Assembly: GCA_965227515.1 (NCBI GenBank)
Contig: CBDDFZ010000001.1
Location: 3,488,001 to 3,552,000 of the forward strand
Direction of reading: 5' to 3'
Source: Alphaproteobacteria bacterium
GTDB lineage: Bacteria > Pseudomonadota > Alphaproteobacteria > CALKHQ01
Length of the DNA: 64,000 nt
Below the pieces are notes generated by a model. The model was not told the DNA's origin. It searched no databases and worked only from the letters and a program-made list of their open reading frames with translations. A program made the position numbers and the translations under genes. Below are positions 1,875 through 23,427 of this stretch, one piece after another (positions within the stretch are counted from its first letter, which is position 1; the number at the start of each line of letters is the position of its first letter).

Positions 1875-1905
1875 CCTAATTGGCTTGGCCCAGCGCACGC
1901 GGCTG

Positions 1906-5629: not shown

Positions 5630-5654
5630 GGACCTGGCGTGTTCCCATTTTTAG

Positions 5655-5683
5655 TTGACTGACCAGTCAATCAAAAATATTCT
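5655..5683 (+). promoter_or_regulatory. Sigma-70 promoter of choXWV overlapped by a palindromic operator (probable BetI site)
   Basis: TTGACT-N17-TATTCT (5655-5683). The palindrome TTGACTG-AC-CAGTCAA (5655-5670) covers the -35 in the betI/choX divergent gap. Confidence 0.8.
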
Positions 5684-5740
5684 CCACCCAATCTCGATTG
5701 TCAACAAGACCAATTCGACACAACCGCACAGGGGGAGAAA

Positions 5741-6661
5741 ATGAAGCATCTCTTGTCAGGAGTTGCGATGGTCGGCCTGTTTGCCGGCCAGGCCTATGCC
5801 GACTGTGAGACCGTCAGTTTCTCCGACGTTGGCTGGACAGATATCACCGCGACCACGGCGGTGACCACAACTGTACTTGAAGCGCTGGGCTACGAGACCG
5901 AGGTCAAGGTGCTGTCGGTGCCGGTGACCTATACCGCACTTGCCGAGGGCGATATCGACATCTTCCTGGGCAACTGGATGCCGACGATGGAAGGCGACAT
6001 CGCCCCCTACCGCGAGGCGGGCACCGTCGACATCGTCGGCGTCAACCTTGAGGGCGCGAAGTACACCCTGGCGGCCAACCGTGCGGCCGCCGATCTCGGC
6101 ATCGCCGACTTCGCCGACATCGCCGCCCACGCCGATGCCCTGGAAAGCGAGATCTACGGTATCGAGCCGGGCAATGACGGCAATCGCCTGATCATCGAGA
6201 TGATCGAGGCCGACGCGTTCGGGCTGTCCGGCTTCGAGGTGGTGGAAAGTTCCGAGCAGGGCATGCTGGCCCAGGTGGCCCGCGCCGACGGCAATGGCGA
6301 CCCGGTCATCTTCCTGGGCTGGGAACCGCACCCGATGAACGCCAATTTCGACATGGTCTATTTGACTGGCGGCGACGACTGGTTCGGCCCCGACTTTGGC
6401 GGCGCTACGGTCTACACCAACACCCGCGCCGGTTATGTCGATGAGTGCCCGAACGTCGGCGCGCTGCTCAACAACCTGACGTTCTCGCTGGCGCTGGAGA
6501 ACGAGATCATGGGCGCGATCCTGAACGATGGCGAGGATCCCAACGATGCCGCCGCGGCCTGGCTTGCGGCGCACATGGACGTCGTGGAGCCATGGCTGGA
6601 CGGCGTCACTACCCTGGACGGCGGCGATGCCATGGAAGCCGTCACCGCCGCCCTGAACTAG
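5741..6661 (+). CDS. choX: Choline ABC transporter substrate-binding protein
   Basis: Signal peptide; FSDVGWTDI, FLGNWMP, GIEPGNDGN, FLGWEPHPMN; RBS-like GGGGAG upstream. Confidence 0.93.
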   Translation: MKHLLSGVAMVGLFAGQAYADCETVSFSDVGWTDITATTAVTTTVLEALGYETEVKVLSVPVTYTALAEGDIDIFLGNWMPTMEGDIAPYREAGTVDIVGVNLEGAKYTLAANRAAADLGIADFADIAAHADALESEIYGIEPGNDGNRLIIEMIEADAFGLSGFEVVESSEQGMLAQVARADGNGDPVIFLGWEPHPMNANFDMVYLTGGDDWFGPDFGGATVYTNTRAGYVDECPNVGALLNNLTFSLALENEIMGAILNDGEDPNDAAAAWLAAHMDVVEPWLDGVTTLDGGDAMEAVTAALN

Positions 6662-6675
6662 CGGCAATCGAATAC

Positions 6676-6702
6676 AAGGGCGCCATCCGGCGCCCTTTTT
6701 TT
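6676..6702 (+). terminator. Intrinsic terminator/attenuator hairpin after choX
   Basis: AAGGGCGCC-ATCC-GGCGCCCTT followed by a T run. Confidence 0.8.
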
Positions 6703-6721
6703 GCTGTCAGGGAGCCGCGCG

Positions 6722-7552
6722 ATGGATTGGCTGACCGACAACAAGATCCCCATCGGCAAATGGGCCAAGTGGCTGGTCGACTGGCTGATCGAGAACGTCG
6801 CCTGGTTCTTCGATGGGCTGGCCGTCGTGTTCGAGCTCATCATCGACGGCATCTTGTGGGTGCTGCAGACACCGCCGGCATTCGTGGTGGTTGCCGCCTT
6901 CGTGGTCGGCACCTATGCGTTGCAACGCTCGTGGGTGATTGCCGGCGGCGTCCTGATCGGCTTCCTGTTCGTCATCAACCAGGGCTATTGGGAGGAAACC
7001 ACGGAGACTCTGACCCTGGTGGTTACCTCCTGCCTGCTTTGCATGGGGCTTGGCGTGCCGATCGGCATTTTCGCGGCCCACAACCCGAAGGTCTATCGGG
7101 CGATGCGCCCGGTGCTGGACCTGATGCAGACCCTGCCCACCTTCGTCTATCTGATCCCGGCCATCGTCTTTTTCGGCATCGGCATGGTGCCTGGCCTCAT
7201 CGCCACCGCCATCTTCGTGATCCCGGCGCCGATCCGGCTCACTCATCTCGGCATCTCGTCCACGCCCACGGCGTTGATCGAGGCCGGAAAGGCGTTCGGC
7301 TGCACGCGGCGGCAACTGCTGTTCAAGGTCGAGCTGCCGTATGCGCTGCCGCAGATCATGGCCGGGCTGACCCAGACCATCATGCTGTCGCTGTCGATGG
7401 TGGTGATCGCGGCCCTGGTCGGTGCCGACGGGCTCGGCGTGCCGGTGGTCCGCGCGCTCAACAGCGTCAACACCGCGCTGGGCTTCGAGGCGGGGCTGGT
7501 GATCGTGGTGCTGGCGATCATGCTCGACCGCATCTTCCGCCGGGAGCGGTAG
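6722..7552 (+). CDS. choW: Choline ABC transporter permease
   Basis: MDWLTDNKIPIG start; PVLDLMQTLPTFVYLIPA and EAGKAFG (EAA loop) of ProW-type permeases. Confidence 0.92.
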   Translation: MDWLTDNKIPIGKWAKWLVDWLIENVAWFFDGLAVVFELIIDGILWVLQTPPAFVVVAAFVVGTYALQRSWVIAGGVLIGFLFVINQGYWEETTETLTLVVTSCLLCMGLGVPIGIFAAHNPKVYRAMRPVLDLMQTLPTFVYLIPAIVFFGIGMVPGLIATAIFVIPAPIRLTHLGISSTPTALIEAGKAFGCTRRQLLFKVELPYALPQIMAGLTQTIMLSLSMVVIAALVGADGLGVPVVRALNSVNTALGFEAGLVIVVLAIMLDRIFRRER

Positions 7553-7554
7553 GC

Positions 7555-8616
7555 ATGGCCCGCGAGGCGATCGTCTTCGACAAGGTGTCGATCGTCTTCG
7601 GCGACCGGCCGCGCGCGGCCCTGCGGCAGATGGACGACGGGCTGGACCGCGCCGCCATCCAGGAACGAACCGGCCAGATCCTGGGCGTGCACGACTGCTC
7701 GCTGACGGTGGCGGAAGGCGAAATCTCGGTGCTGATGGGCTTGTCAGGGTCCGGCAAGTCGACCCTTCTCCGCGCCGTCAACCGGCTGAATCCGGTCACC
7801 CGCGGCAGCCTGATGGTGCGCGACGGCAATACTCTGGTCGATGTCGCGCAGGCCAGCGAGGCGACGCTCGGCCACATCCGCCAGCACTGCGTCTCGATGG
7901 TGTTCCAGCAGTTCGCGCTGCTGCCCTGGCGCACGGTCATCGACAACGTCGCCCTGGGACTGGAGATCGCCAACGTCCCGCCGCGCGAACGCCGCGAGCG
8001 CGCCCATGCCGAGCTTAAGACCGTCAACCTGGCCGACTGGGCCGACCGCAAGGTCAGCGAGCTCTCCGGCGGCATGCAGCAGCGGGTTGGCCTGGCCCGT
8101 GCCTTCGCCACCGATGCGCCGATCCTGCTGATGGACGAGCCGTTCTCCGCCCTCGACCCGCTGATCCGCAACAAGCTGCAGGACGAGCTGCTGGAGTTGC
8201 AGGAGCGCAAGCAGCGCACGATCCTGTTCGTCAGCCACGACCTGGAGGAAGCGGTCAAGATCGGCAACACCATCACCATCCTGGAGGGCGGCAGGATCGT
8301 GCAGTCGGGCCGCGCCGAGGACATCGTGCTGAAGCCGGCGGACGACTATGTGGCCGAGTTCGTTGCCCACCTGAACTTGCTGCCGGTGCTGCGGGTGCGC
8401 GACGTGATGCGCGAGGGAACCAACGGCACCACTGGCAGCGTCGCGGTCGATGCCGATGCGCCCATCGTCTCGGTGATCGAGACCGTGCTGGCCGCCGAGG
8501 GGCGTTCGGTCGCGGTGATGGGGGATGGCGCGCCCATCGGCCACATCTCGGCCGGCGACATCCTGGGCAAGCTGTCGCGCACCGCCCCACCATCCCCGCC
8601 ACATGAGCCAGACTGA
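7555..8616 (+). CDS. choV: Choline ABC transporter ATP-binding protein
   Basis: [28 protein letters not shown]; start MAREAIVF lies 2 nt after the choW stop. Confidence 0.92.
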   Translation: MAREAIVFDKVSIVFGDRPRAALRQMDDGLDRAAIQERTGQILGVHDCSLTVAEGEISVLMGLSGSGKSTLLRAVNRLNPVTRGSLMVRDGNTLVDVAQASEATLGHIRQHCVSMVFQQFALLPWRTVIDNVALGLEIANVPPRERRERAHAELKTVNLADWADRKVSELSGGMQQRVGLARAFATDAPILLMDEPFSALDPLIRNKLQDELLELQERKQRTILFVSHDLEEAVKIGNTITILEGGRIVQSGRAEDIVLKPADDYVAEFVAHLNLLPVLRVRDVMREGTNGTTGSVAVDADAPIVSVIETVLAAEGRSVAVMGDGAPIGHISAGDILGKLSRTAPPSPPHEPD

Positions 8617-9172
8617 GCGCCTGATCGCCGAGGCGATGGCCGCCATCCGCGACCGGCAGTGGCCAAAGGCCGAGGCGCTGCTGCGCCGGCTGGCACGCGG
8701 CAAGGACGTGCCTCCGCAGGTGCCTTACAATCTGGCACTCGTGCTGCGCGAGCTGGGCAAGCCGCGTCAGGTCGGCCACTGGCTCGGCGAGGCGGTGCGC
8801 CTGAAGCCCGACTATGCCGCCGCCTGGTTCGAACTCGGGCGCTGTCGCCTGGACGAAGCCGGCGACATGGCGGGCGCCCGCGACGCATTCGCCGAGGCCG
8901 CGCGGCATGACCCGACCGATGCCGATGCCTGGCGCAATCTGGCTCGGATATCGGCGCGGCTGGGCGACCACGCCGCCGCGCGCGATGCCTGGCGACAGGC
9001 CCTCGCGATCCGCGACGATATCGAGGACCGGGTCGGCCTGGTACAGGCATTGCTCGAATTGCGCGACCCGGACGCCGATGCCCTGCTGAAGGTCCTCTGG
9101 ACCCAACCCGCCAGCCGCGCCTATCTGCTCAAGGCGCTGACCCACAGCAGCGCCGGCACCCTGACCCTGTAG
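8603..9172 (+). CDS. Tetratricopeptide-repeat protein
   Basis: TPR-like units (YNLALVL, PDYAAAWFELG, PTDADAWRNLA); ATG overlaps the end of choV. Confidence 0.8.
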   Translation: MSQTERLIAEAMAAIRDRQWPKAEALLRRLARGKDVPPQVPYNLALVLRELGKPRQVGHWLGEAVRLKPDYAAAWFELGRCRLDEAGDMAGARDAFAEAARHDPTDADAWRNLARISARLGDHAAARDAWRQALAIRDDIEDRVGLVQALLELRDPDADALLKVLWTQPASRAYLLKALTHSSAGTLTL

Positions 9173-9874
9173 CTAGCTTCTGTAGTTCTTCCGATACGCG
9201 CCGCGTTCGGCCTGCACGTCCTCTTGCAGGGCGCGGGTGGCGGCCTGACGGTCCGCGTCCATGGTCTCGACCACAAGGTCCAGGCGCTCGCGCGGCACCG
9301 GCACCGCTTGCGCTACCGGCGTGCCAGCGGCAATGACGCCGCTGAAGCCGGGGTCCGTCCACACCGCCGGGAAGTGCACGTACCCATCGCGGTAGGTGTC
9401 GCAATCGACCAGTCCGGTGAGCGTCTGGAACGGGGTTGGCGGACGCCCGAACGGATGGGTGAACAGTACCGACCAGCCATCCGGCGCCTCCAATGCCCAG
9501 AAGTTCATGAACTTGACGAAGAACCGGCCGCTGCCCGCCAGCGGGCTGCCGGTTGCCTGCTCCGGCGCGTGGACCGCCACCGGCGCGCGGGCCGACACCT
9601 GGTCGGGCAACACCGGTATGTCCCAGTCCCAGGAGATGGCGCCGTTCTCCACCCGCAGGTCGCAGGCGAGCGGCATCAGCAGCCCCAATCCCAGGGCGTC
9701 GATCAGTGGCGGGCAGTGCTTCAGGGTGCGGATCGGCATGCCGCCCAGGCTGTCGGCCGGTACCTCCGAGGGCATGTCGCGCAGCCAGTCCGGCAAGGCC
9801 GACCCCGCCGGTACCGGCTTCGGCAGAATGTGCTCCAGCGCCGGATGGCAGCGCGCGGTGATCTGGATGGTCAT
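9173..9874 (-). CDS. Conserved hypothetical protein, DUF6065-like
   Basis: PVPA..LPDW, HCPPLIDA, GWSVLFTHP, LTGLVDCD and GTPVAQAVP pattern recalled from that family; host-like codon use. Confidence 0.65.
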   Translation of the reverse strand: MTIQITARCHPALEHILPKPVPAGSALPDWLRDMPSEVPADSLGGMPIRTLKHCPPLIDALGLGLLMPLACDLRVENGAISWDWDIPVLPDQVSARAPVAVHAPEQATGSPLAGSGRFFVKFMNFWALEAPDGWSVLFTHPFGRPPTPFQTLTGLVDCDTYRDGYVHFPAVWTDPGFSGVIAAGTPVAQAVPVPRERLDLVVETMDADRQAATRALQEDVQAERGAYRKNYRS

Positions 9875-9922
9875 GGGTGGTCAATTATTAGCCTGCAGCA
9901 CGCTACCTTACCCAACAACAAC

Positions 9923-10014
9923 CGTCATGCTCGGGCTTGACCCGAGCATCCACGAAAATGGCCGCATGAGCGGCCAACAAGACGTGGATGCCCGCAACAA
10001 GTGCGGGCATGACG
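9923..10014. repeat. CGTC-tagged REP doublet (92 bp), copy 1
   Basis: CGTCATGCTCGGG-CTTGA-CCCGAGCATCCAC ... GTGGATGCCCGCA-ACAAG-TGCGGGCATGACG with central hairpin TGGCCGC-ATGA-GCGGCCA; inverted copy at 39210-39301. Confidence 0.92.
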
Positions 10015-10027
10015 AAAGGAAGTGGTG

Positions 10028-10897
10028 CTAAGCCTTCTGCTCCCGGCGGAGGAAAAACGTGTAGACCACGGCACTGACCACCGTCAGCACCACGATGATG
10101 GCGCCGATGGCGTTGATCACCGGCGGGTGGCCGTTGGGGTTGCGCACCATCGCCCCGATCTCGGTGGAAAAGGTGCACGAGCCGCCCTTGGCGAACATGG
10201 TGGTGTTGTAGTTCTCGAACGACGACATGAACGCGATCACGCCCGCGGTGGCCAGCGCCGGCACCAGATATGGCAGCGTGATCCGCCGAAACACCCGCCA
10301 GGTCGAGGCACCCAGGTCCAGCGCCGCCTCCTCGTACTCCGGCGGCTGGCGCTGCAGGCGCGCCATGATCACCAGCATCGGGTAGCCGGCGATGAAGGTT
10401 GTCTGCGCCAGGATGATGGTGGTGAGCCCGGCGTCGACGCCGAAATTGTTCCACATCACCAGGGTCGACAGGCCAAGCACGATGCCCGGTGCGAGCATCG
10501 GCGACAGCAGCACCCACCACAGGAAGCTGTTGAACCGGGTCTGCCAGCGGGTCAGCAGGATGGCGCCGGAGAGCCCCAGCACTAGCGACAGCGGCACCAC
10601 GAAGGCGGCTACGATGAGGGAGTTGCCGAAGCAGTTGGTCAGCCGCGGACGGTCCAGGCTGCGCAGCACGCTGTCGGCGCGCAGGCCCGCATCGTCCATC
10701 CAGAAGAACGCGTACCACTTGCCGGTCAGCCCGTGCCATTCGGTGACGCTGGGCGGCGAGATGTCGTTGAACGACGCGATGATCAGCAGGATCAGCGGCG
10801 CGAACATGAACACCAGGAAGCAGCCGGTGTAGAACTTCAGCACCGTGCCGCTGGCGCCGCGCCCGGTGCGGCCTACCGTTGCCGTCATGACGCTCAT
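10028..10897 (-). CDS. ABC transporter permease, PotC-like
   Basis: EEAALDLGAS EAA loop and hydrophobic helices; ATG overlaps the upstream stop (ATGA). Confidence 0.88.
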   Translation of the reverse strand: MSVMTATVGRTGRGASGTVLKFYTGCFLVFMFAPLILLIIASFNDISPPSVTEWHGLTGKWYAFFWMDDAGLRADSVLRSLDRPRLTNCFGNSLIVAAFVVPLSLVLGLSGAILLTRWQTRFNSFLWWVLLSPMLAPGIVLGLSTLVMWNNFGVDAGLTTIILAQTTFIAGYPMLVIMARLQRQPPEYEEAALDLGASTWRVFRRITLPYLVPALATAGVIAFMSSFENYNTTMFAKGGSCTFSTEIGAMVRNPNGHPPVINAIGAIIVVLTVVSAVVYTFFLRREQKA

Positions 10898-12294
10898 GCC
10901 CGGATGAAGTCCTTCAGGCGCGCACGCACCAGCCACATGAACAGCCCGACGATGACGAAGCAAATCAGGGTGTATGCGAACGCGTACGCCGACCCCAGAT
11001 TAGCGTTCTGGGATTCGAAGAACTTGTTGTAGATCGACTGGCTGAACCACTCGCCCTGCAAGCCGCGCGAGATGATGCGCGGCACCGAGAACGCGCCCGC
11101 CGACAGCATGAAGGTCGCGATGCAGCCGACCGCGATGCCGGGTTTGGAATGCGGCACGATGATGCGCCGGTGGATACGGAAGGTGGATGCCCCCAGGTCG
11201 CGTGCCGCCTCGATCTGGTTGCGGTCGAGCGTCGCCATCACGTTGTAGAGCGGGAACACCATGAACAGGATGTACGTGTAGACGATCACTACGAACACGG
11301 TGACCGGGCTGCGCTTGAACGCGATCCCCTCCCCGTCGGAAAGATCGAGGATGCCGATGAGGTCGAGCACCTGGTTGAACACGCCATTGGCGTCGATCAG
11401 CGCCACCCAGGCGTACACCCGCATCAGCTCGACGGTGGCATATGGGATGATCAGCGCCAGGAACAGCCAGACCGCGCGCTTCGGCGTTGCCGTCAGGGCC
11501 AGATTGTACGCGATCGGATAACAGGCGATCAGCGCCAACCCGGTGGCGAGCACGGCGAAGATCACCGTGCGGATCAGGGTCGTCAGCGTGATCCGCTCGT
11601 ACACCTCCCCATCGCGCTCGTAACGCAGGCCGACCAGTTGCTGGAGCTGGGTGCCGAACTCGGCATCGGCGCGGGCGCGGGCATCATCGGTCAGCGGGAT
11701 CAGCCGCGACTGCACCATGTGCTCGAAGTTGGTCAGGCTGTAGGGGCTGACGTCGGCTTCCTCGACCAGCAGGCGCTGCTGCAGGTCGCGCGCCACCGCT
11801 TCGATCTCGACCGCCTGGGCGAACTGGGTCTCCAGATCCGCGGACTGGTCGACCGACAGAGTTGCAACGCCGTACTCCTCGTCGAGGAACAGGGTCACGT
11901 CCTCGTCGCGGATCAGCTGCTGGTGGGTGTTCGCCCGGTCGCACTGGATGATGTAGGGCAGTGCGCCGGCATCCGCCCCGCCCATGCTGGGGATGCCCAT
12001 CTCGCCCGGCGCGGGCTGATGGCTGGGCGACGGCGTGATCGACGGGATCGCCAGGCCGCCGTCATCTTCCGGCGCCGCATCCTCGCGATAGCTGTCCAGC
12101 ACGGTCTGGCAGGTGCTCGCGTCCTGCATCAGCGCGAACGCGATCGAGCTGTCGTTCTGGCGCGCGGGCGTGCGCAATGCCTGATCCAGCATCGTGATCT
12201 GCGGCAGGATGATCAGCAGCACGCCCCACAGCGCCGCGGCGGCGACGAAGAATGTCGTCAGCCCCGGCCCATAGGCGCGTACGAGCTTACGCAT
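10894..12294 (-). CDS. ABC transporter permease, PotB-like, with a large extracytoplasmic insertion
   Basis: EAARDLGAS loop and CYPIAY core; about 190 aa acidic segment after the first transmembrane helix. Confidence 0.85.
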   Translation of the reverse strand: MRKLVRAYGPGLTTFFVAAAALWGVLLIILPQITMLDQALRTPARQNDSSIAFALMQDASTCQTVLDSYREDAAPEDDGGLAIPSITPSPSHQPAPGEMGIPSMGGADAGALPYIIQCDRANTHQQLIRDEDVTLFLDEEYGVATLSVDQSADLETQFAQAVEIEAVARDLQQRLLVEEADVSPYSLTNFEHMVQSRLIPLTDDARARADAEFGTQLQQLVGLRYERDGEVYERITLTTLIRTVIFAVLATGLALIACYPIAYNLALTATPKRAVWLFLALIIPYATVELMRVYAWVALIDANGVFNQVLDLIGILDLSDGEGIAFKRSPVTVFVVIVYTYILFMVFPLYNVMATLDRNQIEAARDLGASTFRIHRRIIVPHSKPGIAVGCIATFMLSAGAFSVPRIISRGLQGEWFSQSIYNKFFESQNANLGSAYAFAYTLICFVIVGLFMWLVRARLKDFIRA

Positions 12295-12317
12295 GGTAGG
12301 CCCGACCGCGCGCTGGC

Positions 12318-13439
12318 CTAGGCATTTTCGGCCATGTCCTTGCCGGTGGCCGCCAGCGGCCCCTGAGGGAGGACGACCGCGTTCTCGCAGGCAAAGCCGA
12401 TGTGCTGGCGTCCCTCCAGGTCGCGACCGGCGGCACCCGTATTGGTCAGGTGCATGGCGATCTGACGGTCGCCGGCACGCAGGAACACGTTGACGAACGG
12501 TCCTTCCAGATCGCGACGTTCGACATCGGCATCGAGCGCGTTGCCGTACGCGCCGCCTTCGGCCTCGCCTTGCAGGCCGACATGCTCCGGCCGGACGAAC
12601 ACCATCGCCTGCGCGCCGACCGCCAGCCCGGATGGATTGCGGCCGAGAAAACGCCCCGCCGGCGTCTCGACCTGGGCCATGTCGCCCTCAAGTGCGGCGA
12701 CGTTGCCCTGGAACACGTTGGTCTCGCCAACGAAGCTGGCGACGAACGAGGTCGCCGGGCGGCTATAGACCTCATCGGCAGCCCCCACCTGCTCGACCAC
12801 GCCGTCCTTCATCACCGCGACCCGGTCGGACATGGTCAGGGCCTCGCCCTGGTCGTGGGTGATGTAGATGAAGGTGACGCCGGTCTGGCGCTGAATCGCG
12901 CGCAACTCGGCGCGCATGTGCTGGCGCAACTTAAGGTCCAACGCCGACAACGGCTCGTCCAGCAACAGCACCGCCGGCTCGACCGCCAGTGCGCGGGCAA
13001 TCGCCACCCGCTGCCGCTGCCCGCCGGAAAGCTCGGTCGGCTTCTTTGTGCCCTGTCCGCCCAGCGCCACCAGGTCCAGCAGCTCCATGGCGCGCTGCTT
13101 GCGCTTCGCCTTGGAGACGCCGCGGGACTCGAGCCCGAAGGCCACGTTCTCCCACACCGTCATCAGCGGGAACAATGCCAGGTTCTGGAAGATCAGCGCG
13201 GTCGGCCGCGCATTGGGGCCGGAGCGACCCATGTCCTCGCCGCCGATCAGGATGCGGCCTGCACTCGGCTGAATGAAGCCGGAGATGGCGCGCAGGATCG
13301 TGGTCTTGCCGCAGCCCGAAGGCCCGAGGATGGAAAAGAACTCGCCGGCGGCGACGGTCAGCGAGGTCGGCTGCACCGCGGTGAAGCCGTTGGGATAGGT
13401 AATCCGGAGCTCGTCGAGGACGACGTCGTTGCCACGCAT
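12318..13439 (-). CDS. ABC transporter ATP-binding protein, PotA-like
   Basis: GPSGCGKTT, LSGGQRQR, LLLDEPLSALD, ITHDQGEAL; TOBE-like C-terminus. Confidence 0.92.
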   Translation of the reverse strand: MRGNDVVLDELRITYPNGFTAVQPTSLTVAAGEFFSILGPSGCGKTTILRAISGFIQPSAGRILIGGEDMGRSGPNARPTALIFQNLALFPLMTVWENVAFGLESRGVSKAKRKQRAMELLDLVALGGQGTKKPTELSGGQRQRVAIARALAVEPAVLLLDEPLSALDLKLRQHMRAELRAIQRQTGVTFIYITHDQGEALTMSDRVAVMKDGVVEQVGAADEVYSRPATSFVASFVGETNVFQGNVAALEGDMAQVETPAGRFLGRNPSGLAVGAQAMVFVRPEHVGLQGEAEGGAYGNALDADVERRDLEGPFVNVFLRAGDRQIAMHLTNTGAAGRDLEGRQHIGFACENAVVLPQGPLAATGKDMAENA

Positions 13440-13481
13440 GCCTCAAGCCCCCATCACGTCGGCACGTGAGTTCCCGGCGAG

Positions 13482-13509
13482 CGGGCGGCGAGCCAAGACC
13501 CGCCGCCCG
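13482..13509. terminator. GC-rich hairpin downstream of the binding-protein gene (mRNA stabiliser or partial terminator)
   Basis: CGGGCGGCG-N10-CGCCGCCCG; no T run. Confidence 0.5.
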
Positions 13510-13516
13510 ACCCGGC

Positions 13517-14647
13517 TCAGGCGTTGGTGATGATCTCGACGAATTCGTCGCGGACCGGTGCGAAGAATGCGGTGTCGGCCTGCCACCACCACATATTGCT
13601 CAGCACGTCCGGCCGGTAGACCTCGTTGAACTGCTGCTTGAACTCGTCGGAGGCGTAGTCGGCCGCGCCCGCAACCGCGGAGTTGTAGCCGGTGTTGTTG
13701 GCGAACATGCCGCCGACCTCCGGGGTCAGCATGAAGTTGATGAAGGCGTACGCCTGCTCCACGTTCTCCGCGCCCGAGGTCAGGCCGATGGAGTCCATCC
13801 AGGTGATGATGCCTTCCTTCGGCGCGCGATAGACGTAGTTGGCATCCTCGCGGTTCAGCAGCAGGCCAGTGGTGTCCCAGGTCTGCCCGATCACGCAGCC
13901 GGCGTCCTTGAACGCGCCGGTCGCCTCGGTGGCGTTGTTCCAGAAGGCGCCGAAATTGGCCTTGTGCTCGATGATGTACTCGGTGACCGCACCCCACACC
14001 CGGCGCGCATCCTCTTCGGACTTGTAGACGTCGAGCATGCGGTTGGACGGCACGTCGCCGGTCGCGTCCAGGTAGAGGCCGGTGCCCATGATCGCCGACT
14101 TCTGGCGGAATGCCGCGGCACCCGCCGCCTCCGGCCGCCACAGGTCGCCGAACGACAGGTCCTCGTCGGAAATGTCGAGCGCGCCGCGGTTCAGCGTGAT
14201 GCCCTCGGTGCCCCAGTCGAACGGGATCAGGTAGCGGTCGCCGCCGATGGTGGCGCCCAGCGCGATGGAGTCGCGCAGGAACGACGGGATCACCGCGTCC
14301 AGATTGGCCTTGGACTCGTCGATCGCGCCCAGCCAGGTGCCGTTCGGCGCGTCCGCATCGTCGTACCCCGGCCGGTTGGTGATCGACGGCATGATGACGT
14401 CGAAGCCCTTGCCGCCATTGGCGCGCAGGGTCGACTCCGCCTCGTCGTTGGAACCGAACGTGGTCAGGTTCAGCGTGATGCCGGTGTCCGCCTCGAACTT
14501 CTCGGCGATGTTCGGCTGGATGTAGTCCTGCCAGGCGAACACGTTGACCGCGCCTGACGAGGCAAGCGCATCGTGGGCGCGCAGAACGGCAGGTGCCGCA
14601 ACCGCGGCCGCCGCGCCCTTCAGGACGGTACGACGGGACATGGACAT
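13517..14647 (-). CDS. ABC transporter substrate-binding protein, PotD/PotF-like, Tat-exported
   Basis: Twin-arginine SRRTVLK; FAWQDYI, PFDWGTEG, PKEG...WMD, AYAFINFM. Confidence 0.9.
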   Translation of the reverse strand: MSMSRRTVLKGAAAAVAAPAVLRAHDALASSGAVNVFAWQDYIQPNIAEKFEADTGITLNLTTFGSNDEAESTLRANGGKGFDVIMPSITNRPGYDDADAPNGTWLGAIDESKANLDAVIPSFLRDSIALGATIGGDRYLIPFDWGTEGITLNRGALDISDEDLSFGDLWRPEAAGAAAFRQKSAIMGTGLYLDATGDVPSNRMLDVYKSEEDARRVWGAVTEYIIEHKANFGAFWNNATEATGAFKDAGCVIGQTWDTTGLLLNREDANYVYRAPKEGIITWMDSIGLTSGAENVEQAYAFINFMLTPEVGGMFANNTGYNSAVAGAADYASDEFKQQFNEVYRPDVLSNMWWWQADTAFFAPVRDEFVEIITNA

Positions 14648-14738
14648 GGTGGATCTCCCCTGAGGAACGGAAATTTTGGAGTCTTGATGACGAGCAGGCT
14701 GCTACCGCGCCTCCTTTAACAACGTCACGTGCACCTTC

Positions 14739-14779
14739 TATTGCATTATTGTGACACTTTTATTGCGGATCGTGACACT
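14739..14779 (-). promoter_or_regulatory. Tandem direct repeat, degenerate Pho-box-like, upstream of the ABC operon
   Basis: Minus strand reads AGTGTCAC-GATCC-GCAATA-AA-AGTGTCAC-AATAAT-GCAATA; the second unit fits 7-4-7 spacing (GTGTCAC-AATA-ATGCAAT). Confidence 0.5.
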
Positions 14780-14826
14780 CTCTTGACGCTGCCGAAAAGC
14801 CATTTTCCAGGGGACAATTGGCCCTG

Positions 14827-14844
14827 CTGTCATTCCACTGTCAT
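14827..14844 (+). promoter_or_regulatory. Pho box (PhoB binding site)
   Basis: CTGTCAT-TCCA-CTGTCAT: two consensus half-sites at 11-bp period, 83 nt before the hydrolase ATG. Confidence 0.85.
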
Positions 14845-14927
14845 GGCAATTGGTTAGACGGCAATGTTCCCAGCAACGGCGAGCTGCCATGCTGGCCTGC
14901 ATCTCCTGCACACGGGTTGGAACCGCG

Positions 14928-16436
14928 ATGAACGTCCTCCTGATCACTTGCGACCAATGGCGCGGCGACTGCCTTTCGGCGGTCGGCCATCCCGTCGTCA
15001 GAACGCCGAATGCCGACCGGCTGGCAGCGCGCGGCACCTTGTTCGAGCGCCACTATTGCCAGGCGGCGCCATGCTCGCCGGCCCGCGCATCGCTGCTGAC
15101 CGGGCTCTACCAGATGAACCACCGGGTCTGCCGCAACGGCACGCCGCTGGACGCGCGCCACGACAACCTGGCGCTGGCCGCCCGGCGCCATGGCTACAAT
15201 CCCGTGCTGTTCGGCTACACTGATACCGGTGTCGATCCGCGCACCTGCAGCCCGGCCGACCCGCGCACCCGCACCTATGAGGGCGTGCTGCCCGGCTTCC
15301 ATGCCGAGCAATTGCTGCCTGAGTCGTCGGAGCCTTGGTTGGCCTGGTTGAGACGCAAGGGCGTGCCGGTGCCCGAGACCGGGCTGGACGTCTACCTGCC
15401 CGAGGATGGCGCCATCGACCCGCCCACCGGTGCGCCCGTGCGCCATCCGGCCGAGGCAACGGAAGCCGCGTTTCTGGCCGAGGCCTGCATGGACTACATC
15501 GGCGAAATGGGGGCGACGCCCTGGTTCGCGCATGTCAGCTTCCTGCGCCCGCATCCACCGTTCACCGCGCCGGCGCCCTACAACAAGATGGTCTCGCCAG
15601 ACGAGGCGCCGGACTTCGTGCGCGCGCCCTCCATTGACGCCGAGCGCGCATCGCACCCATTCGTCAACGGCGCGCTCGCCATGATCGAGAAGGGCGACTT
15701 CATTCGCGGCGCGACGGGACTGGCGGCGGACTGGGACGACGACGCGCGCCGGCAGATCCGCGCCACCTACTACGGACTGGTCGCCGAGGCGGATGCGCAG
15801 GTCGGGCGCCTGCTCGACTTCCTGGAGGAAACCCGCCAGCTCGACGACACGCTGGTGGTGCTGACCACCGACCACGGCGAGATGCTGGGCGACCACTACC
15901 TGTTCGGCAAGCTCGGCTATTTCGACCAGGCCTTCCACATTCCGCTGATCGTCGCCGGACCCAATGTGGCGCGCGGGCACCGGGTCAACGCTTTCACCGA
16001 GTCCGTCGACGTGACACCGACTGTGATCGCCCACATGGGCGAGACGCCGCCGCGCGCGATGGACGGGCGGTCTCTGGCGCCGTTCCTGTCAGGCGGTGCA
16101 CCGGGCCAGTGGCGCGACTGCGCGCATTGGGAGTTCGATTTTCGGGAAGTGGCAAACCCGGCCGTTCAGGCGGCCATCGGCCTGCCCATCGACGACTGCG
16201 CTCTGGCGGTGATCCGCGATGAGCGCTTCAAGTATGTGCATTTCACTGCGCTGCCGCCGTTGCTGTTCGACCTGGCCAACGACCCGGGCGAACTGAACAA
16301 CCTGGCGGACGATCCCACCCATGCGTCCACGCGGGTTATCTATGCCGAGAAAATGCTGTCGTGGCGCGCCCGCCATCTGGACCGCACACTGACCGGCATC
16401 GAATTACACCCCGACGGGATGGTCAGTTTGCCTTGA
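14928..16436 (+). CDS. Phosphonate monoester hydrolase/phosphodiesterase-like enzyme (formylglycine sulfatase, alkaline phosphatase superfamily)
   Basis: NVLLITCDQWRGD, CSPARASLLTG, YQMNHR..NGTPLD, LFGYTD, RPHPPF, TDHGEMLGDH, KYVHFTALPPLLFDL: pattern of PMH/PehA-type enzymes; upstream Pho box. Confidence 0.82.
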   Translation: MNVLLITCDQWRGDCLSAVGHPVVRTPNADRLAARGTLFERHYCQAAPCSPARASLLTGLYQMNHRVCRNGTPLDARHDNLALAARRHGYNPVLFGYTDTGVDPRTCSPADPRTRTYEGVLPGFHAEQLLPESSEPWLAWLRRKGVPVPETGLDVYLPEDGAIDPPTGAPVRHPAEATEAAFLAEACMDYIGEMGATPWFAHVSFLRPHPPFTAPAPYNKMVSPDEAPDFVRAPSIDAERASHPFVNGALAMIEKGDFIRGATGLAADWDDDARRQIRATYYGLVAEADAQVGRLLDFLEETRQLDDTLVVLTTDHGEMLGDHYLFGKLGYFDQAFHIPLIVAGPNVARGHRVNAFTESVDVTPTVIAHMGETPPRAMDGRSLAPFLSGGAPGQWRDCAHWEFDFREVANPAVQAAIGLPIDDCALAVIRDERFKYVHFTALPPLLFDLANDPGELNNLADDPTHASTRVIYAEKMLSWRARHLDRTLTGIELHPDGMVSLP

Positions 16437-16459
16437 GTCCGCTGTCGCTCAGCAGACTG

Positions 16460-16930
16460 TTAGATCGGCGTTGCGGGCGGCCCGCCAAGTGTCGTCTCGT
16501 TATCGCTGTCCAGCGGCCCCGGCCCCAAGCCGGGCGCGGCCGCCGGCGTCACGGGACCAGCCGCGGGTGCAGGCCCGGCCGCCGGCTCCGCTCCAGCCAG
16601 CAAGCAGGCGGAGGTGAAACTGTCCACCAGTTCTGGCGCCAACACCGCCTGGGCCGTCGCCACGATATCGAACACAGCCTCGCTGCTGATGCTGCAGCAC
16701 GACGTCGCCAATGCCTCCAACTCCGCCGCCGTGGCGGAACCGATGGCGCCTGACGGCGCGCATATGCCGCCGCTGGCAAATACCGTTGGGTCGACATTGC
16801 CCCCCTGGGGCAACGGCTCGTCCGACTGAGTGATCCCTGGCAAGTCTTGCGCAAGCGCCTGCCCGGCGAACACCGCCAAGACCGGCACCAGGCATCCCAC
16901 TGCAAATCTGCGGCCCAGTTGCATCTGCAT
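16460..16930 (-). CDS. Hypothetical secreted protein, Cys-containing core with Pro/Ala-rich tail
   Basis: RBS-like AAGGGGAAG before MQMQLGRRF; signal peptide ending AGQALA; four Cys in the mature part; PAAGP repeats. Confidence 0.65.
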   Translation of the reverse strand: MQMQLGRRFAVGCLVPVLAVFAGQALAQDLPGITQSDEPLPQGGNVDPTVFASGGICAPSGAIGSATAAELEALATSCCSISSEAVFDIVATAQAVLAPELVDSFTSACLLAGAEPAAGPAPAAGPVTPAAAPGLGPGPLDSDNETTLGGPPATPI

Positions 16931-17026: not shown

Positions 17027-18547
17027 TCAATCGATCGTTGGATCGCGCCACGCCGCCGTCGCACCGCGCAGCAGCAACTTGATATCCAACAAGAGTGACC
17101 AATTCCTGATATAGGCGATGTCCAAGTCCAAACGATGGCGCAAGTGCTCATCAGAGTCCACAATTCCGCGGAAGCCGGCAATCTGCGCCATGCCGATCAG
17201 GCCAGGCCGCATCCGATACCGCGCCATGTAATCGGCATAGATTTCGGAAACCAGCCGCCCGTCGTGCATCATGTTCTCAGGGTGCGGGCGTGGGCCCACG
17301 ATCGACATCTCGCCCAGCAACACGTTGAAGAGCTGCGGCAGCTCATCCAGGCTATACTTCCGCAACACGCGGCCGACCCGCGTGATGCGCGCATCGCCGC
17401 GCGCGGTCTGCCGGGTGCCCGTCGTGTCGCAGTCCGTCGACTGCATCGACCGGAATTTCCAGACCCTGAAGGTGTTGCCGTTGAAGCCGCGACGGGTCTG
17501 CCGGTAGAAGACCGGGCCGGGCGAGTCCAGCTTGATTGCGATGGCCGCCGCGATCATAAGCGGCGCCAGCAGCAGCAACAGCAATGCGGCACCGACGCGA
17601 TCCTCTGCCATCTTCAGCAGTCGGGCCGAGCGGCGCGCCATCGGCCACTCAGACAGGCGACGGCCAATGCCGGTGCGCGGCGCGTCGGCGGAGCCGGCGG
17701 CCCCGGCGAGCGCCATGCTGTCGTCGGCGGCATGCACCAGCACGGGCATCATGCGCAGGCGCTCGGCCAGCATGTCGATCCGCTGGCCCGCATGACCTGG
17801 CAACGCGACAAAGACATGGGTGACGCCGAACCGGTTGACCAGTTCTCGAATGTTGTCGACATCGCCCAGCAGAGGCCCGACACGATCCGCGTCGATACGG
17901 GTGCGGCGGTCGTCCACGAACCCCACCAATTCGATGCCGCTGGCGTGCTGCCGTGCCTGTTGCGCGGCAAACTGGCGGCCCTCCTCGCCCGCGCCCACCA
18001 CCACCGCACGGGCGATCGGCCTCACCCGCACACGGCCGCTGCGCAACGCGGCGCAGAACGCCGCACGAAGACCAGCGACGATCGGCGCCCCCACAACAGC
18101 AGCCGCCGCGGCATTGGCGGCGGAGGTGGCAAGGTCGCCGGTCACGACAGCCGCCACCGCGAGCGCGAACGCGCAAGTGCTCAGCCAGATGGCCACGCCG
18201 CGTCCGACCGATACCGGCCGACACACGTCCAGCCCGGCGTCCCGCCACATCCAGGCCAGACACGCGATTGCGAACGCCGCGGGCACGCCCGCCAGCCAAG
18301 TTGCGTGCTGATACCAGTGGATCGTGGCGATCTGGTCGCCGCCAAACATCCCTGGCGCCGCGAAGCCCCAGGTTGTCAGCACGACCGCGAGAAGCAGCGC
18401 CTCAAGGCCGAAAGCGACCTCATACGAAAGGCGTGGCCAGGCAACGGCGCCTGAAGTCCGGATGTTACGCTGAGACGAAGACCGACGCGGCGAAGCAAGC
18501 GACGCCAACGCACCTGTGGGTTCATCCTGCACGGACACAGAATACAT
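17027..18547 (-). CDS. Polyprenyl-phosphate priming glycosylphosphotransferase (WcaJ/CpsE type)
   Basis: N-terminal TM helices, VVVGAG/VGFVDD domain, KFRSM, SLDELPQLFNVL, SIVGPRP, DIAYIRNWS. Confidence 0.92.
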   Translation of the reverse strand: MYSVSVQDEPTGALASLASPRRSSSQRNIRTSGAVAWPRLSYEVAFGLEALLLAVVLTTWGFAAPGMFGGDQIATIHWYQHATWLAGVPAAFAIACLAWMWRDAGLDVCRPVSVGRGVAIWLSTCAFALAVAAVVTGDLATSAANAAAAAVVGAPIVAGLRAAFCAALRSGRVRVRPIARAVVVGAGEEGRQFAAQQARQHASGIELVGFVDDRRTRIDADRVGPLLGDVDNIRELVNRFGVTHVFVALPGHAGQRIDMLAERLRMMPVLVHAADDSMALAGAAGSADAPRTGIGRRLSEWPMARRSARLLKMAEDRVGAALLLLLLAPLMIAAAIAIKLDSPGPVFYRQTRRGFNGNTFRVWKFRSMQSTDCDTTGTRQTARGDARITRVGRVLRKYSLDELPQLFNVLLGEMSIVGPRPHPENMMHDGRLVSEIYADYMARYRMRPGLIGMAQIAGFRGIVDSDEHLRHRLDLDIAYIRNWSLLLDIKLLLRGATAAWRDPTID

Positions 18548-18919
18548 TCCCTCGAAAAACCGCGGGGACTGCCTACCTGTCGCCCGCTATCGCTATTTGA
18601 CGTTCAGCCCTCGTCAGGGGACGTCCAGAGCCGTCCGAACAGGCTCGTTGACACGTTGAAAAATCATAACGAAAAATTTAGACTAACACAAGGTCAATTC
18701 AAGGAATTTCGTTTTGATTTGAGGCAGTTGCGCGCCGCGGCATTAACCAAATTTCCGTTAGTTGGCGATCATATTTTCGCCCACCCGGATCTTCGTTTTG
18801 CGTCTAGACATCGCGCGCCAACCCTGGGCACCGGCGCAACCAAGGCCGTCGTGCCGCACTCGCACCGCGCCGGCCCGCACCATGGCGTTTGACATACACA
18901 GGCAATACGGACGATCAAC

Positions 18920-21202
18920 GTGGCCGTGATGCACGCGAACGACGACAAACCGGGCCATGTGGCGGCGCGCGCCGAACCAGTGTTGTTCAGGCAGGCCGCC
19001 GACCCCGCCCCGCTGGCGAGCCTGCTGTTGCCGATCTGGCGTCGGCGATGGCAGTTCCTGGCCGCGGCGCTGCTGACCCTGGTCGCCGCATTCCTTGTCA
19101 TCGAGCAACTGCCGAAGAAATACACAGCCTCCGCCAGCATCCTGGTCGACCCACGCGAACGTCGGGTCACCGAGTTCGATGCGGTCGTGGATGCGCTGCC
19201 TGGCTCGTCGGAGACCGTCGCCAGCCAGATCGAGCTGCTGACGTCTGACACGGTGTTGCGCGCGGTGGTCGACCGTCTGGCACTGCAACGGTCGGAAGAA
19301 TGGAATCCGAATGGCGGCTCGCCGCGGCGTGGCCTGATTTCGCGCACCTTGATGTGGTTCGGCGCATCGGCGGACTGGGTGGATACCCTGGTCGGTGCCC
19401 CGGCATACGAGGAACTGGCGCCTGCGCAGCGCGCCGAGCTGGTCGAGACCAACATCGTGGACCGGGTCCGCCGCGCCTTGAATGTCGCACCGGCCGGGCG
19501 GTCGTTCGTCATCGACATCGAGGCCACGTCGCGCGACCGCGCCATGGCGCAGCAAATGGCCAATGCTGTCGCCGAGGTATTCATCGAGCAACAGCTGCAG
19601 GCCAAACAGGAGCTGACCCGCCAGGCCACCCAATGGCTCGAAGACCGGTTGGTCACGCTGCGGGCGGAGGTTGCGGTTGCCGAGCAGGCCCTCGACCATG
19701 CGCGCCTGGAGCTCGAATTGCGCCAGCAGCTCGACCCACTGCTAGTGGAGCGCCAGATCGACGAGCTGATCGGCATGACGTTGCAGGCCACGTTGCAACG
19801 GGTTCGTGCGGAGGCCCAGCTCAGCCAGGTCGAGACCTTGTTGGCCGAGCAGGGCACGACAGCCCTGTCGTCCCTGGTGCAGCCGTCCGACTTGTTCGCG
19901 GTCAACTACCAGCTCACCGAGTTGACCAATACCGCGGCGCAACTTGCCGCGCAGTACGGGCCGGACAACCCAACGGTTCAAGCCCTGGAAGCGCGCATCG
20001 CGCAGCTCGAGGCCCAGGCGACGGACAGCATTCTCGCCATCTACCGGCGCGACGTCGCCGAGGCAACGGCCACATTGGACCTGTTGCAGGAGCAACTTGA
20101 AGCTGCCCGGGTCCGTGCCTTGGACCTGAAGCGCGAGTTCGCCGACGCCGAGTTGGCATTGCGGGAGCTGGAGCGCGAGGCCGAGGCCAGCCGCACCATC
20201 TACGAGACGCTGCTGCTGCGCCTGAAAGAGACCGAACAGGGCGGGTTCGAGTCAGCCGACATCACCCTGGCTTCACGCGCCATATTGCCGTCCGAACAGA
20301 GCTGGCCGAACCGGACCGTCTTCCTGGCCGTGGCCCTGTTGCTGGCGGCAGGCGTCGGACTTGGCGTGGTCGGCCTGGGCGAGGCCCTGGAAAGCGGCTT
20401 CCGAGATGCAACCAAGCTGGAGGAAGCCTTCGGTGCGCCGTGCCTCGGCCTGATACCGGAGGAGCGAAATCCCAAGTTCCGCACCGATCCGGCGACGTAC
20501 TTGCGCAACGAGTCGTTGTCCCCGATCGCAGAGGCGCTGCGATCGCTCGCCTTCGTATGGCGCAGCCAATTCGGCCAGAAATGCCACGCCACCATGATCA
20601 CGTCTTCCCTGCCCGAGGAGGGCAAGTCGTCGACGGCCATTGGCCTGGCCTATTCCTTGGCGCTTGCCGGCCGAAAAGTCTGTCTCATCGACTGCGATAT
20701 TCGCCGTCCAACCGTTGGCAGACAGCTTGGGATCGCCAATTCAGTGACACTGCAGGACCTGCTCGCGGGCGCACAGGTTGAGTTTCCGAAGGCGTGGCGA
20801 CATGCCGATGTTCCATTGACGGTCATTCCGGCGGGCCCCCCGTCCAATACGAGGCACGACATTGGATTGGCGGAGTGGCTCCCGGCATTCTTTGCAAAAC
20901 TGAAGTCTCATTTCGACGTCATACTCGCTGACGCGCCGCCAATTCTCTCGTCCGCCGACAGCCGTGCGATCGCGCAGGCGTGCGACACCTCTGTCCTGGT
21001 CGTGCGATGGCGCAAGACGCCGCGCAATGCGGTCACCAAGACCTACCGAGAAATGAGAGTTGCCAACATCGCCATCGGCGGCGTCATCCTGTCGCGCGTG
21101 CGCACGTCCCGCGGCGCCTACTACGACTACAACTATCGTGCCCGTCCGGCGGACCCCGCGATGGCCAGTCACGGCGAAGCCGAGGAAAAGCGCGTAGGCT
21201 GA
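18920..21202 (+). CDS. wzc: Polysaccharide co-polymerase/tyrosine autokinase (Wzc/ExoP/GumC type)
   Basis: Wzz domain (YTASASILV, SQIELLTS), coiled coil, Walker A SSLPEEGKS, LIDCD, DAPP and Tyr cluster GAYYDYNY. Confidence 0.9.
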   Translation: MAVMHANDDKPGHVAARAEPVLFRQAADPAPLASLLLPIWRRRWQFLAAALLTLVAAFLVIEQLPKKYTASASILVDPRERRVTEFDAVVDALPGSSETVASQIELLTSDTVLRAVVDRLALQRSEEWNPNGGSPRRGLISRTLMWFGASADWVDTLVGAPAYEELAPAQRAELVETNIVDRVRRALNVAPAGRSFVIDIEATSRDRAMAQQMANAVAEVFIEQQLQAKQELTRQATQWLEDRLVTLRAEVAVAEQALDHARLELELRQQLDPLLVERQIDELIGMTLQATLQRVRAEAQLSQVETLLAEQGTTALSSLVQPSDLFAVNYQLTELTNTAAQLAAQYGPDNPTVQALEARIAQLEAQATDSILAIYRRDVAEATATLDLLQEQLEAARVRALDLKREFADAELALRELEREAEASRTIYETLLLRLKETEQGGFESADITLASRAILPSEQSWPNRTVFLAVALLLAAGVGLGVVGLGEALESGFRDATKLEEAFGAPCLGLIPEERNPKFRTDPATYLRNESLSPIAEALRSLAFVWRSQFGQKCHATMITSSLPEEGKSSTAIGLAYSLALAGRKVCLIDCDIRRPTVGRQLGIANSVTLQDLLAGAQVEFPKAWRHADVPLTVIPAGPPSNTRHDIGLAEWLPAFFAKLKSHFDVILADAPPILSSADSRAIAQACDTSVLVVRWRKTPRNAVTKTYREMRVANIAIGGVILSRVRTSRGAYYDYNYRARPADPAMASHGEAEEKRVG

Positions 21203-21203
21203 C

Positions 21204-23417: not shown

Positions 23418-23427
23418 TCGCGACGGC

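Follow-up and report, generated by a model that had tools for sequence, protein, structure and literature searches.

The 64,000-nt window analysed here (positions 3,488,001 to 3,552,000 of contig CBDDFZ010000001.1 in the alphaproteobacterial assembly GCA_965227515.1; G+C content 66.7%) lies on contig C1 of a 5.5-Mb genome of two contigs, designated G000. Within it, a gene unit resembling the putrescine/spermidine transporters, with genes for a substrate-binding protein (SBP), an ABC ATPase, two permeases and a DUF6065-like protein, diverges across a short intergenic gap from the gene of a hydrolase related to the phosphonate monoester hydrolases (PMHs), with Pho-box-type sites lying in this gap in front of both units. 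The positions of these features are given in Table 1. As a whole, the locus is best explained by a reading that is held to stand about an even chance of being right, in which the gap is a bidirectional phosphate-starvation control region serving an importer for an amine-bearing organophosphorus compound together with the PMH. The parts of this reading differ in strength: Pho control of both units is well supported, control by PhoB in this organism being inferred from the sites; the importer does not look like a classical polyamine system; and an organophosphorus amine as its substrate is plausible, though unproven.

Table 1. Positions of the transporter unit, the hydrolase gene and associated features in the window.
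Feature	Position	Strand	Remarks
TPR-repeat protein	8525-9172	+	TPR Pfam matches; convergent with the DUF6065-like gene
DUF6065-like protein	9173-9874	-	233 aa; cytoplasmic; predicted dUTPase-like fold; conserved fifth gene
Terminator-like hairpin	9959-9976	-	7-pair stem plus TTTT, in the gap between the last permease gene and the DUF6065-like gene
PotC/PotI-like permease	10028-10963 (longest open reading frame)	-	PF00528, 50 bits
PotB/PotH-like permease	10894-12294	-	466 aa; PF00528 on residues 283-457 only
ABC ATPase with TOBE domain	12318-13439	-	PF00005, 118 bits; TOBE_2
SBP	13517-14647	-	376 aa; PF13416 (SBP_bac_8), 76 bits; TAT_signal (PF10518), 23.2 bits
Intergenic gap SBP/hydrolase	14648-14927	between divergent genes	280 bp
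Array of about five 10-11-bp direct repeats	14736-14789	-	reads towards the SBP gene
Perfect Pho box	14827-14844	+	CTGTCAT-TCCA-CTGTCAT; reads towards the PMH gene
Hydrolase assigned to the PMH clade (PehA-like)	14928-16436	+	502 aa; alkaline-phosphatase superfamily, sulfatase fold

Pho-type sites between the divergent units

The perfect Pho box that the initial annotation had placed in front of the hydrolase was found there (CTGTCATTCCACTGTCAT), with 101 nt from the start of the box to the PMH ATG. It is the only perfect copy of CTGTCAT-N4-CTGTCAT in the genome, which contains three sites with up to one mismatch and 17 with up to two. Within the window, two matches with up to two mismatches were found against 0.20 expected. 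The second of these (GCGTCATGGCACTGTCAT, 46637-46654, two mismatches) starts 106 nt before the ATG of phnG, the first gene of the phnGHIJKLM carbon-phosphorus (C-P) lyase operon (46743-52484), which is located 32 kb from the module; a classic Pho operon of this genome thus shares the box type and the spacing of the PMH gene. By Pfam, the operon includes PhnG, PhnH, PhnI, PhnJ, an ABC ATPase and a PhnM-like amidohydrolase. The gene for PhoB is present in the genome beside pstS (342.7 bits, cut-off 296.2). The two boxes with one mismatch (G000:C1:3936528 and G000:C1:133441) are found just upstream of an MgtC-family and a DUF1178 gene, respectively.

On the transporter side, two copies of GTGACAC stand 21 bp apart on the plus strand (14751-14757 and 14772-14778); read on the minus strand, they are GTGTCAC. 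The heptamer GTGTCAC has 185 occurrences genome-wide (both strands), and GTGTCAC-N14-GTGTCAC is the sole pair with a gap of 3-25 nt in the genome, with about 0.003 expected per gap length. The initial annotation had described a tandem GTGTCAC repeat facing the transporter; the pair is indeed unique, but the heptamer is palindromic (GTG-N-CAC), so the direction towards the transporter comes from the flanking repeats alone. The units of the whole array are GCGTCAA / GTGTCAC / CGCAATA / GTGTCAC / ATGCAAT, and it is considered a candidate multi-site PhoB operator. The arrangement observed in the gap is not due to chance. No match to a sigma-70-like promoter was obtained in 8400-16700, a scan that is uninformative for PhoB-dependent promoters.

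A conserved motif upstream of the binding protein gene

Eighty related loci were fetched with the SBP (58-84% identity). Most are from Rhodobacterales/Paracoccaceae; others are from Aurantimonadaceae, Jiella among them, and from a small number of gammaproteobacteria, and the closest are in metagenome-assembled genomes (MAGs) labelled Inquilinaceae. In most of the 80 loci, direct repeats of 11 bp with the pattern (C/G)NGTCA(C/T)-AAAN occur two to four times in the 200 nt upstream of the SBP gene. A position weight matrix (PWM) of 33 positions was trained on the SBP upstream regions of 72 loci, with the window's own group (four loci) held out. Matches of at least 17 bits were found on the forward strand in 42 of the 72 loci and in none on the reverse strand or after shuffling, and the best match begins between -135 and -75 in 64/72.

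When the whole of G000 was scanned on both strands, 11 sites reached at least 17 bits, the top four belonging to the genes for UgpB (27.1 bits; NCBIfam UgpB 528, cut-off 411), PstS (22.6 bits), a phytase-like esterase (22.2 bits) and PhoD (20.2 bits). These four sites precede or sit at the 5' end of their respective genes; the phytase-like site is a simple threefold repeat and the PhoD site lies inside the 5' end of the longest open reading frame. From the identity of these four genes, the conserved upstream motif can therefore be regarded as a Pho box. The minus-strand site of the window (CCGCAATAAAAGTGTCACAATAATGCAATAGAA, 14768 to 14736) is found 121 nt ahead of the ATG of the SBP gene, a distance like that in the orthologous loci; with 16.7 bits, it is one of 13 genome-wide that score at least this much. 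Additionally, CCGTCA(C/T)-N4-CTGTCAT with up to two mismatches to the consensus was present in four of six Aurantimonadaceae loci, and pairs of GTCAY spaced 11, 21 or 22 nt were found in 12/76 loci on the forward strand and 5/76 on the reverse strand, compared with a mean of 0.17 loci after shuffling and 0/73 in a coding control.

The five-gene unit and its DUF6065-like partner

The genes for the SBP, the ATPase, the two permeases and the DUF6065-like protein are colinear in 63 of the 80 loci, and the DUF6065-like gene itself was found in 65, following the transporter also in relatives from other families. Among the 15 loci where it was not found, nine end within 3.3 kb of the SBP gene and six, having 9 kb downstream, are truly without it. 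In 40/80 loci, the DUF6065-like gene is followed within 2.5 kb by a convergent TPR gene.

The 233-aa DUF6065-like protein has no Pfam or NCBIfam match. It has 745 homologues, and among the best 120 listed every named one is hypothetical or uncharacterized; the nearest Atlas cluster is named 'DUF6065 family protein', and no paper naming DUF6065 was found in the literature searched. An AlphaFold (AF2) model built from a 38-sequence alignment reached a pLDDT of 90.8. When this model was compared with solved structures by VIA-align, the top 22 entries all belonged to the dUTPase/dCTP-deaminase family, including two herpesvirus proteins with a dUTPase-related fold, with Z from 9.6 to 5.2 and the next entry at 4.1; Foldseek matched the model to dUTPase/dCTP deaminase with an E of 1e-4. 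Sequence homology to dUTPase was considered and rejected: the 38-sequence profile compared with that of the G000 Dut gave an hhalign probability of 0.09 with only seven columns aligned (AGTPVAQ against RGMRIAQ), there was no Pfam dUTPase match, and phmmer against the PDB gave nothing meaningful. With a matching fold and a negative profile comparison, the protein is therefore dUTPase-like by fold only, and a dUTPase-like fold is what the model predicts for it.

As for the transporter proper, the order of the genes with the SBP first (D-A-B-C) matches potFGHI and not potABCD, which slightly amends an earlier description of the divergent units as a PotABCD-like operon and a PMH gene. For the ATPase, PhnT2 scores best among the NCBIfam models (340.6 bits, cut-off 457.7), followed by PotA (322.7 bits, cut-off 355.6), and neither score reaches its cut-off. 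The PotB model covers residues 230-451 of the 466-aa permease with 121 bits, giving a PotB-like core of about 230-460, and the PotC model scores 122 bits on the second permease (cut-off 326), for which an alternative ATG at 10897 overlaps the preceding stop codon (ATGA). The 466-aa permease has about 200 extra N-terminal amino acids (residues ~35-230) following the first hydrophobic stretch, with no family match; closer homologues align over the full length and distant ones begin at about residue 230. This insertion may be a large extra-membrane loop.

Between the last permease gene and the DUF6065-like gene, the 153-nt gap (9875-10027) contains three GC-rich hairpins, one of them terminator-like. 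The region has four terminator-like sites compared with a shuffle expectation of 4.0, that is, no excess, and in most related loci the permease and DUF6065-like genes abut, only a few bases apart.

The binding protein and its pocket

The SBP scores 84.7 bits with the NCBIfam PotD model (cut-off 582) and 73.4 bits with PotF (cut-off 636), roughly one seventh and one ninth, respectively, of what these equivalog models require, and by these family models it is a divergent member of the PotD/PotF branch. Its N-terminus contains the twin-arginine translocation (TAT) signal SRRTVLKG, and with R5 and R6 invariant across 30 homologues the protein is probably exported in a folded state.

The pocket was compared by sequence alignment only, with E. 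coli PotD (8y5h_E), whose E36, D168, E171 and D257 we take to be the four acids that hold the polyamine nitrogens. PotD residues kept in the SBP are W34, E36 (as D41), Y37, S83, W229, W255, D257 (as D285), Y293 and Q327, and the aromatic cage (W39, Y42, W257, W283 and Y321 of the SBP) is invariant in 30 sequences. In place of the PotD segment LTDDAREV, with its D168 and E171, the SBP has AFRQKS, and these two acids align with K183 and I186 (or, in a second alignment, M187 for the latter). Across the 30-sequence alignment (51-91% identity to the query), R181 and S184 do not vary and Q182 and K183 hardly vary. The pocket would thus have kept the recognition of an amine while losing two cation-binding acids and gaining basic residues, a composition that would suit an amine with an anionic group.

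These observations bear on the possibility that the unit is a true putrescine/spermidine-type importer under Pho control, perhaps supplying polycations when phosphate-rich polyanions run down, and that the PMH is an unrelated co-regulated neighbour. This explanation is considered unlikely, although several facts speak for it: the nearest solved relatives of the SBP, at about 80-123 bits, are all polyamine binders (PotD, PotF or SpuD/E), which also weighs against an organophosphorus substrate, the SBP retains the fold family, the aromatic cage, D285 and the W-x-D-Y motif, the public annotation of the family is spermidine/putrescine binding protein, and a Pho-dependent system of Phaeobacter sp. 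MED193 is annotated as PotD/PotA in the available part of its report (PMC10132767). What speaks against it is the conserved AFRQKS segment in place of D168/E171, so that the full set of four acids is not present; the scores far below the PotD and PotF equivalog cut-offs; the DUF6065-like gene, which is part of the module in most loci and not of pot operons; and the repeated proximity of the module to phosphoesterase and C-P lyase genes, described below.

The hydrolase

The hydrolase has a Pfam Sulfatase match of 163.8 bits, and its best NCBIfam family is PehA, with 614.9 bits, below the equivalog cut-off of 900. Against solved PMHs it scores 600 bits (4uph), 498 bits (RlPMH, 2vqr), 484 bits (BcPMH, 2w8s) and 395 bits (4upk), compared with 227 and 220 bits for the dimeric arylsulfatases 4upl and 4upi and 126 bits for choline sulfatase. 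From these scores it is assigned to the PMH clade, being closer to the solved PMHs than to arylsulfatases or choline sulfatases. The formylglycine motif CxPxR is kept (C49-S-P-A-R53), as is the DHG metal-ligand segment, and the formylglycine-generating enzyme family (PF03781) has seven matches above cut-off at six loci of G000. The protein begins with MNVLLITCDQWRGD; its alignment to the catalytic core of the solved PMHs starts at residue 2, and that to the genes of its relatives at residue 1. Since it begins directly at the catalytic core, it has no signal peptide, as had been noted previously. PMH enzymes are best known for their catalytic promiscuity.

Phosphorus-related genes around the unit

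PehA-like hydrolase genes adjoin the module in three different arrangements. The divergent arrangement is restricted to the window's group (L045-48, 69-75% identity) and is also that of genome G001; in L093, the PehA-like gene (322 bits with PehA, its best NCBIfam model) shares the strand of the module and lies upstream of it, and in L115, a Halothiobacillaceae MAG, it is convergent after the DUF6065-like gene (PehA, 606 bits). Genes for a PHP-family 'CehA/McbA metallohydrolase' were found in 33/80 loci. Their two arrangements are unrelated: in Rhodobacterales the gene follows the TPR gene, and in most Aurantimonadaceae loci it diverges from the SBP gene. None was detected in G000 by tblastn. 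A gene for an SpdA-like metallophosphoesterase occurs in one locus (L028). C-P lyase genes are in the flanks of 10/80 loci, phnI/phnJ in L054, L072, L080 and L118-123, plus L051, which has phnM only, directly upstream of the SBP gene. Genes annotated as pmh beside phnWX and phnW-Y-A clusters have been described in algal-associated bacteria in the available part of a 2026 report (PMC13608971). PhnW and PhnX were not found in G000, where the best scores (76 and 43 bits) stay below the respective cut-offs (400.8 and 220); an imported aminophosphonate would therefore have to use the C-P lyase. Three PhnD-type binders are encoded elsewhere in G000, and the module is therefore not the sole conceivable phosphonate importer of this genome.

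In seven Aurantimonadaceae loci (L113 and L118-L123, at ~10150-11250 in each), a gene for an OlsF/GlsA-like lyso-aminolipid acyltransferase separates the SBP gene from the ATPase gene, behind the Pho box, and an eighth copy (L105) lies upstream. In the same Aurantimonadaceae loci, the stretch from the module to a divergent phnGHIJ contains genes for PhnF and a PHP metallohydrolase. The acyltransferase would fit an importer of an amino compound that has no phosphorus, for instance a head-group precursor of the amino-acid type, which would serve the phosphorus-free aminolipids formed during lipid remodelling, and a pocket for an amine plus an anion would also suit a carboxylate. This is nevertheless regarded as very unlikely: the gene stands between those for the SBP and the ATPase in only 7/80 loci, all from one family, and the explanation leaves the PMH, PHP and C-P lyase neighbours as well as the dUTPase-fold partner without a role.

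Proposed function

Here it is proposed that, during phosphate starvation, PhoB would bind the perfect Pho box and switch on the cytoplasmic PMH-type hydrolase and would bind the array of ~11-bp repeats, on the other strand, to switch on the ABC importer, part of a unit that several alphaproteobacterial orders and a few gammaproteobacteria have behind Pho boxes. The importer would most likely take up a small solute in which an amine is combined with a phosphoryl or phosphonyl group of anionic character, the candidates being 2-aminoethylphosphonate (2-AEP), its esters, and head-group diesters of phospholipids or phosphonolipids. A conserved cytoplasmic step would be carried out by the DUF6065-like protein, and an ester group would be removed by a lineage-specific phosphoesterase, the PMH in this genome and a PHP metallohydrolase or an SpdA-like metallophosphoesterase elsewhere. 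The C-P lyase, whose operon is also behind a Pho box, could then release phosphate from a phosphonate product. A more far-reaching version, in which the unit belongs to a widespread new Pho-regulon pathway that uses esters of amino-phosphonates or diesters of head groups (phosphonolipid-derived glycero-2-aminoethylphosphonate being one example), with a PotD-derived SBP, the DUF6065-like enzyme family and interchangeable esterases, is put forward as a speculative and rather improbable extension.

Linkage of the SBP homologues to phosphorus genes had been set beforehand as the test of such a reading, and its absence would have counted as a refutation; linkage was observed in the form of the Pho motif in 42/72 loci and of PHP, C-P lyase and PehA-like genes in 33, 10 and 6 of the 80 loci, respectively. 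The initial annotation of a Pho-regulated module is retained as far as both divergent units have Pho-box-type sites, and the linkage to PMH or phn genes, which it had named as a check, is recurrent. Its assumption that the hydrolase is the partner of the transporter does not hold in general, the PMH being found beside it only in the window's group and two other lineages; the constant partner is instead the DUF6065-like gene (9173-9874), which that annotation did not cover.

Several further points weigh against the proposed function. The perfect box on the PMH side is not kept in three genomes of the same family, the transporter-side site of the window (16.7 bits) is weaker than many of the orthologous sites, and the held-out close relatives score 21.2 (L047), 15.0 (L046), 6.0 (L048) and 5.1 (L045) bits. 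The expectation-maximization run behind the PWM was seeded with the Pho consensus, which introduces a bias. Of 29 other PMH homologues examined, only two had a Pho box (up to three mismatches, 300 nt upstream), and by this criterion PMH genes do not in general belong among the Pho genes. The five NCBIfam matches of the SBP at E ≤0.001 include no PhnS or PhnS2 model, and the pocket was read from a pairwise alignment at ~25% identity. The PMH gene is adjacent to the module in only 6/80 loci, and two genomes (G031 and G054) carry the module and a PMH gene on different contigs. Pho-regulon genes may also cluster simply through co-regulation. Counts across 401 genomes of the class point the other way: the DUF6065-like marker is present in 16 of them, and PhnJ was found in 11/16 marker-positive and 49/385 marker-negative genomes and PMH in 8/16 and 49/385. 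These counts are confounded by relatedness and lifestyle, the genomes not being independent; one genome (G003) is marker-negative only since its contig ends. With its rare adjacency, its presence at other loci and a box that is not kept, the PMH is thus an occasional, lineage-specific associate of the module and not its defining enzyme.

Some of these points fit a different explanation, in which the PMH and the importer are co-regulated and act on different substrates, the PMH recycling the cell's own phosphodiesters under phosphate starvation in the manner of PlcP or UgpQ with no need of the importer. In the class, 57/401 genomes have PMH homologues, which for the most part lie apart from the module, the box on the PMH side is peculiar to G000, and roseobacters are known to have Pho-induced phosphodiesterases inside the cell, such as PlcP, according to the available part of PMC10132767. 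It does not follow, as had initially been argued, that a cytoplasmic hydrolase needs an importer, since a Pho-induced cytoplasmic diesterase could use phosphodiesters of the cell itself. As a whole, separate substrates are held to be improbable, as PehA-like genes have joined the module in three arrangements in distant lineages and PMH is found in half of the marker-positive genomes (8/16) against 49/385 of the others.

Should the importer for amine-bearing organophosphorus compounds be confirmed, spermidine/putrescine annotations would be misleading metagenomic readings of polyamine and phosphorus cycling in marine alphaproteobacteria, the PhoB-dependent 'PotD' of the Phaeobacter proteome would be accounted for, and the DUF6065-like family would gain its first functional context. 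It would also offer a testable route to the native substrate of PMH enzymes. If the wider pathway were real, the promiscuous PMHs would gain their missing physiological substrate and would feed the C-P lyase.

Flanking genes

The module is adjoined by a block of choline/betaine genes (56-8616), which includes a GCV_T/DAO gene of the dimethylglycine-dehydrogenase-like type, a betA-like GMC oxidoreductase and a betB-like aldehyde dehydrogenase, as well as a BetI-type TetR regulator and an OpuAC-type binding protein with its permease. The GCV_T/DAO gene recurs in 8/80 related loci. A conserved link between the module and these genes was considered and not supported, the flanks in G001 carrying unrelated genes. 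Directly after the PMH gene (17027-31607), an exopolysaccharide-type block encodes a sugar transferase, a Wzz/tyrosine-kinase-like protein, a Wzy_C ligase-like protein, a WecG-family transferase and epimerases.

Comparison with known systems

A regulated system that may be related has been reported in Phaeobacter sp. MED193, where PotD (MED193_11424), PotA (MED193_11419) and PotC (MED193_11409) rise without phosphate by log2 fold changes of 2.6, 2.6 and 2.2, respectively, the rise of PotD and PotA being lost and that of PotC reduced (log2 1.04) in a phoB mutant, and where a PHP-domain protein (MED193_18169) rises by 4.57; in its available part, this report assigns no role to the Pot proteins (Westermann et al. 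2023, PMC10132767). The order of the locus tags fits SBP-ATPase-permease-permease, the second permease (tag 11414) was not found in that part of the report, and the likeness to the present unit is one of tags and annotation. The name MED193_11424 (UniProt A3XFK5) was found neither among the 120 listed homologues of the SBP nor among the listed members (up to 15 each) of seven clusters. The SBP family occurs in Pseudophaeobacter species. A literature search on the Pho regulon and putrescine in Rhodobacteraceae gave nothing directly relevant.

Among the importers of 2-AEP (PhnSTUV, AepXVW and AepSTU), the likeness lies in the proposed import of an amine-bearing organophosphorus compound by an ABC system and in PhnT2 as the best match of the ATPase. 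In the available part of one report, AepX of P. putida is induced on phosphate depletion via PhoBR, and AepX and PhnS are grouped with iron and sulphate binders in pfam13343 (PMC8316502). The SBP described here best matches PotD and PotF and is set apart from AepX and PhnS, by family models on its side and by that published description on theirs. The hydrolase resembles RlPMH, BcPMH/PehA and 4uph in its scores (498-600 bits, BcPMH 484), in the CxPxR and DHG motifs and in being cytoplasmic without a signal peptide; it differs from the known PMHs in scoring below the PehA equivalog cut-off, in its position behind a perfect Pho box and in its place beside an importer. The literature search returned no paper with both phosphonate monoester hydrolase and Pho box, and a PMH gene placed behind a perfect Pho box and beside an importer was not found in print in the searches made.

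By family, the closest systems are E. coli PotFGHI and PotABCD, which share with the present unit the SBP fold family (PF13416/PF01547), a TOBE ATPase, two PotB/C-type permeases, the gene order of potFGHI, the aromatic cage, the W-x-D/E-Y motif and the acid corresponding to PotD D257. The differences are the scores far below the equivalog cut-offs, AFRQKS in place of D168/E171, the TAT signal, the ~200-aa permease insertion, the fifth, DUF6065-like gene and the upstream Pho boxes; PotFGHI is thus the closest family, although neither the equivalog scores nor the full set of acids of a polyamine binder were found.

In its proposed logic, the locus is closer to UgpBAEC with UgpQ of E. coli, in which a Pho-regulated system imports glycerophosphodiesters and is accompanied by a phosphodiesterase of the cytoplasm. 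In both, a PhoB-activated importer would be combined with a cytoplasmic esterase that frees a usable phosphorus compound. The present locus differs in having a PotD-like SBP and, in place of a glycerophosphodiester phosphodiesterase, a formylglycine-type esterase of the alkaline-phosphatase superfamily, which is divergently transcribed and lineage-specific. With these differences, Ugp with UgpQ is the closest working analogy for the importer and hydrolase described here.

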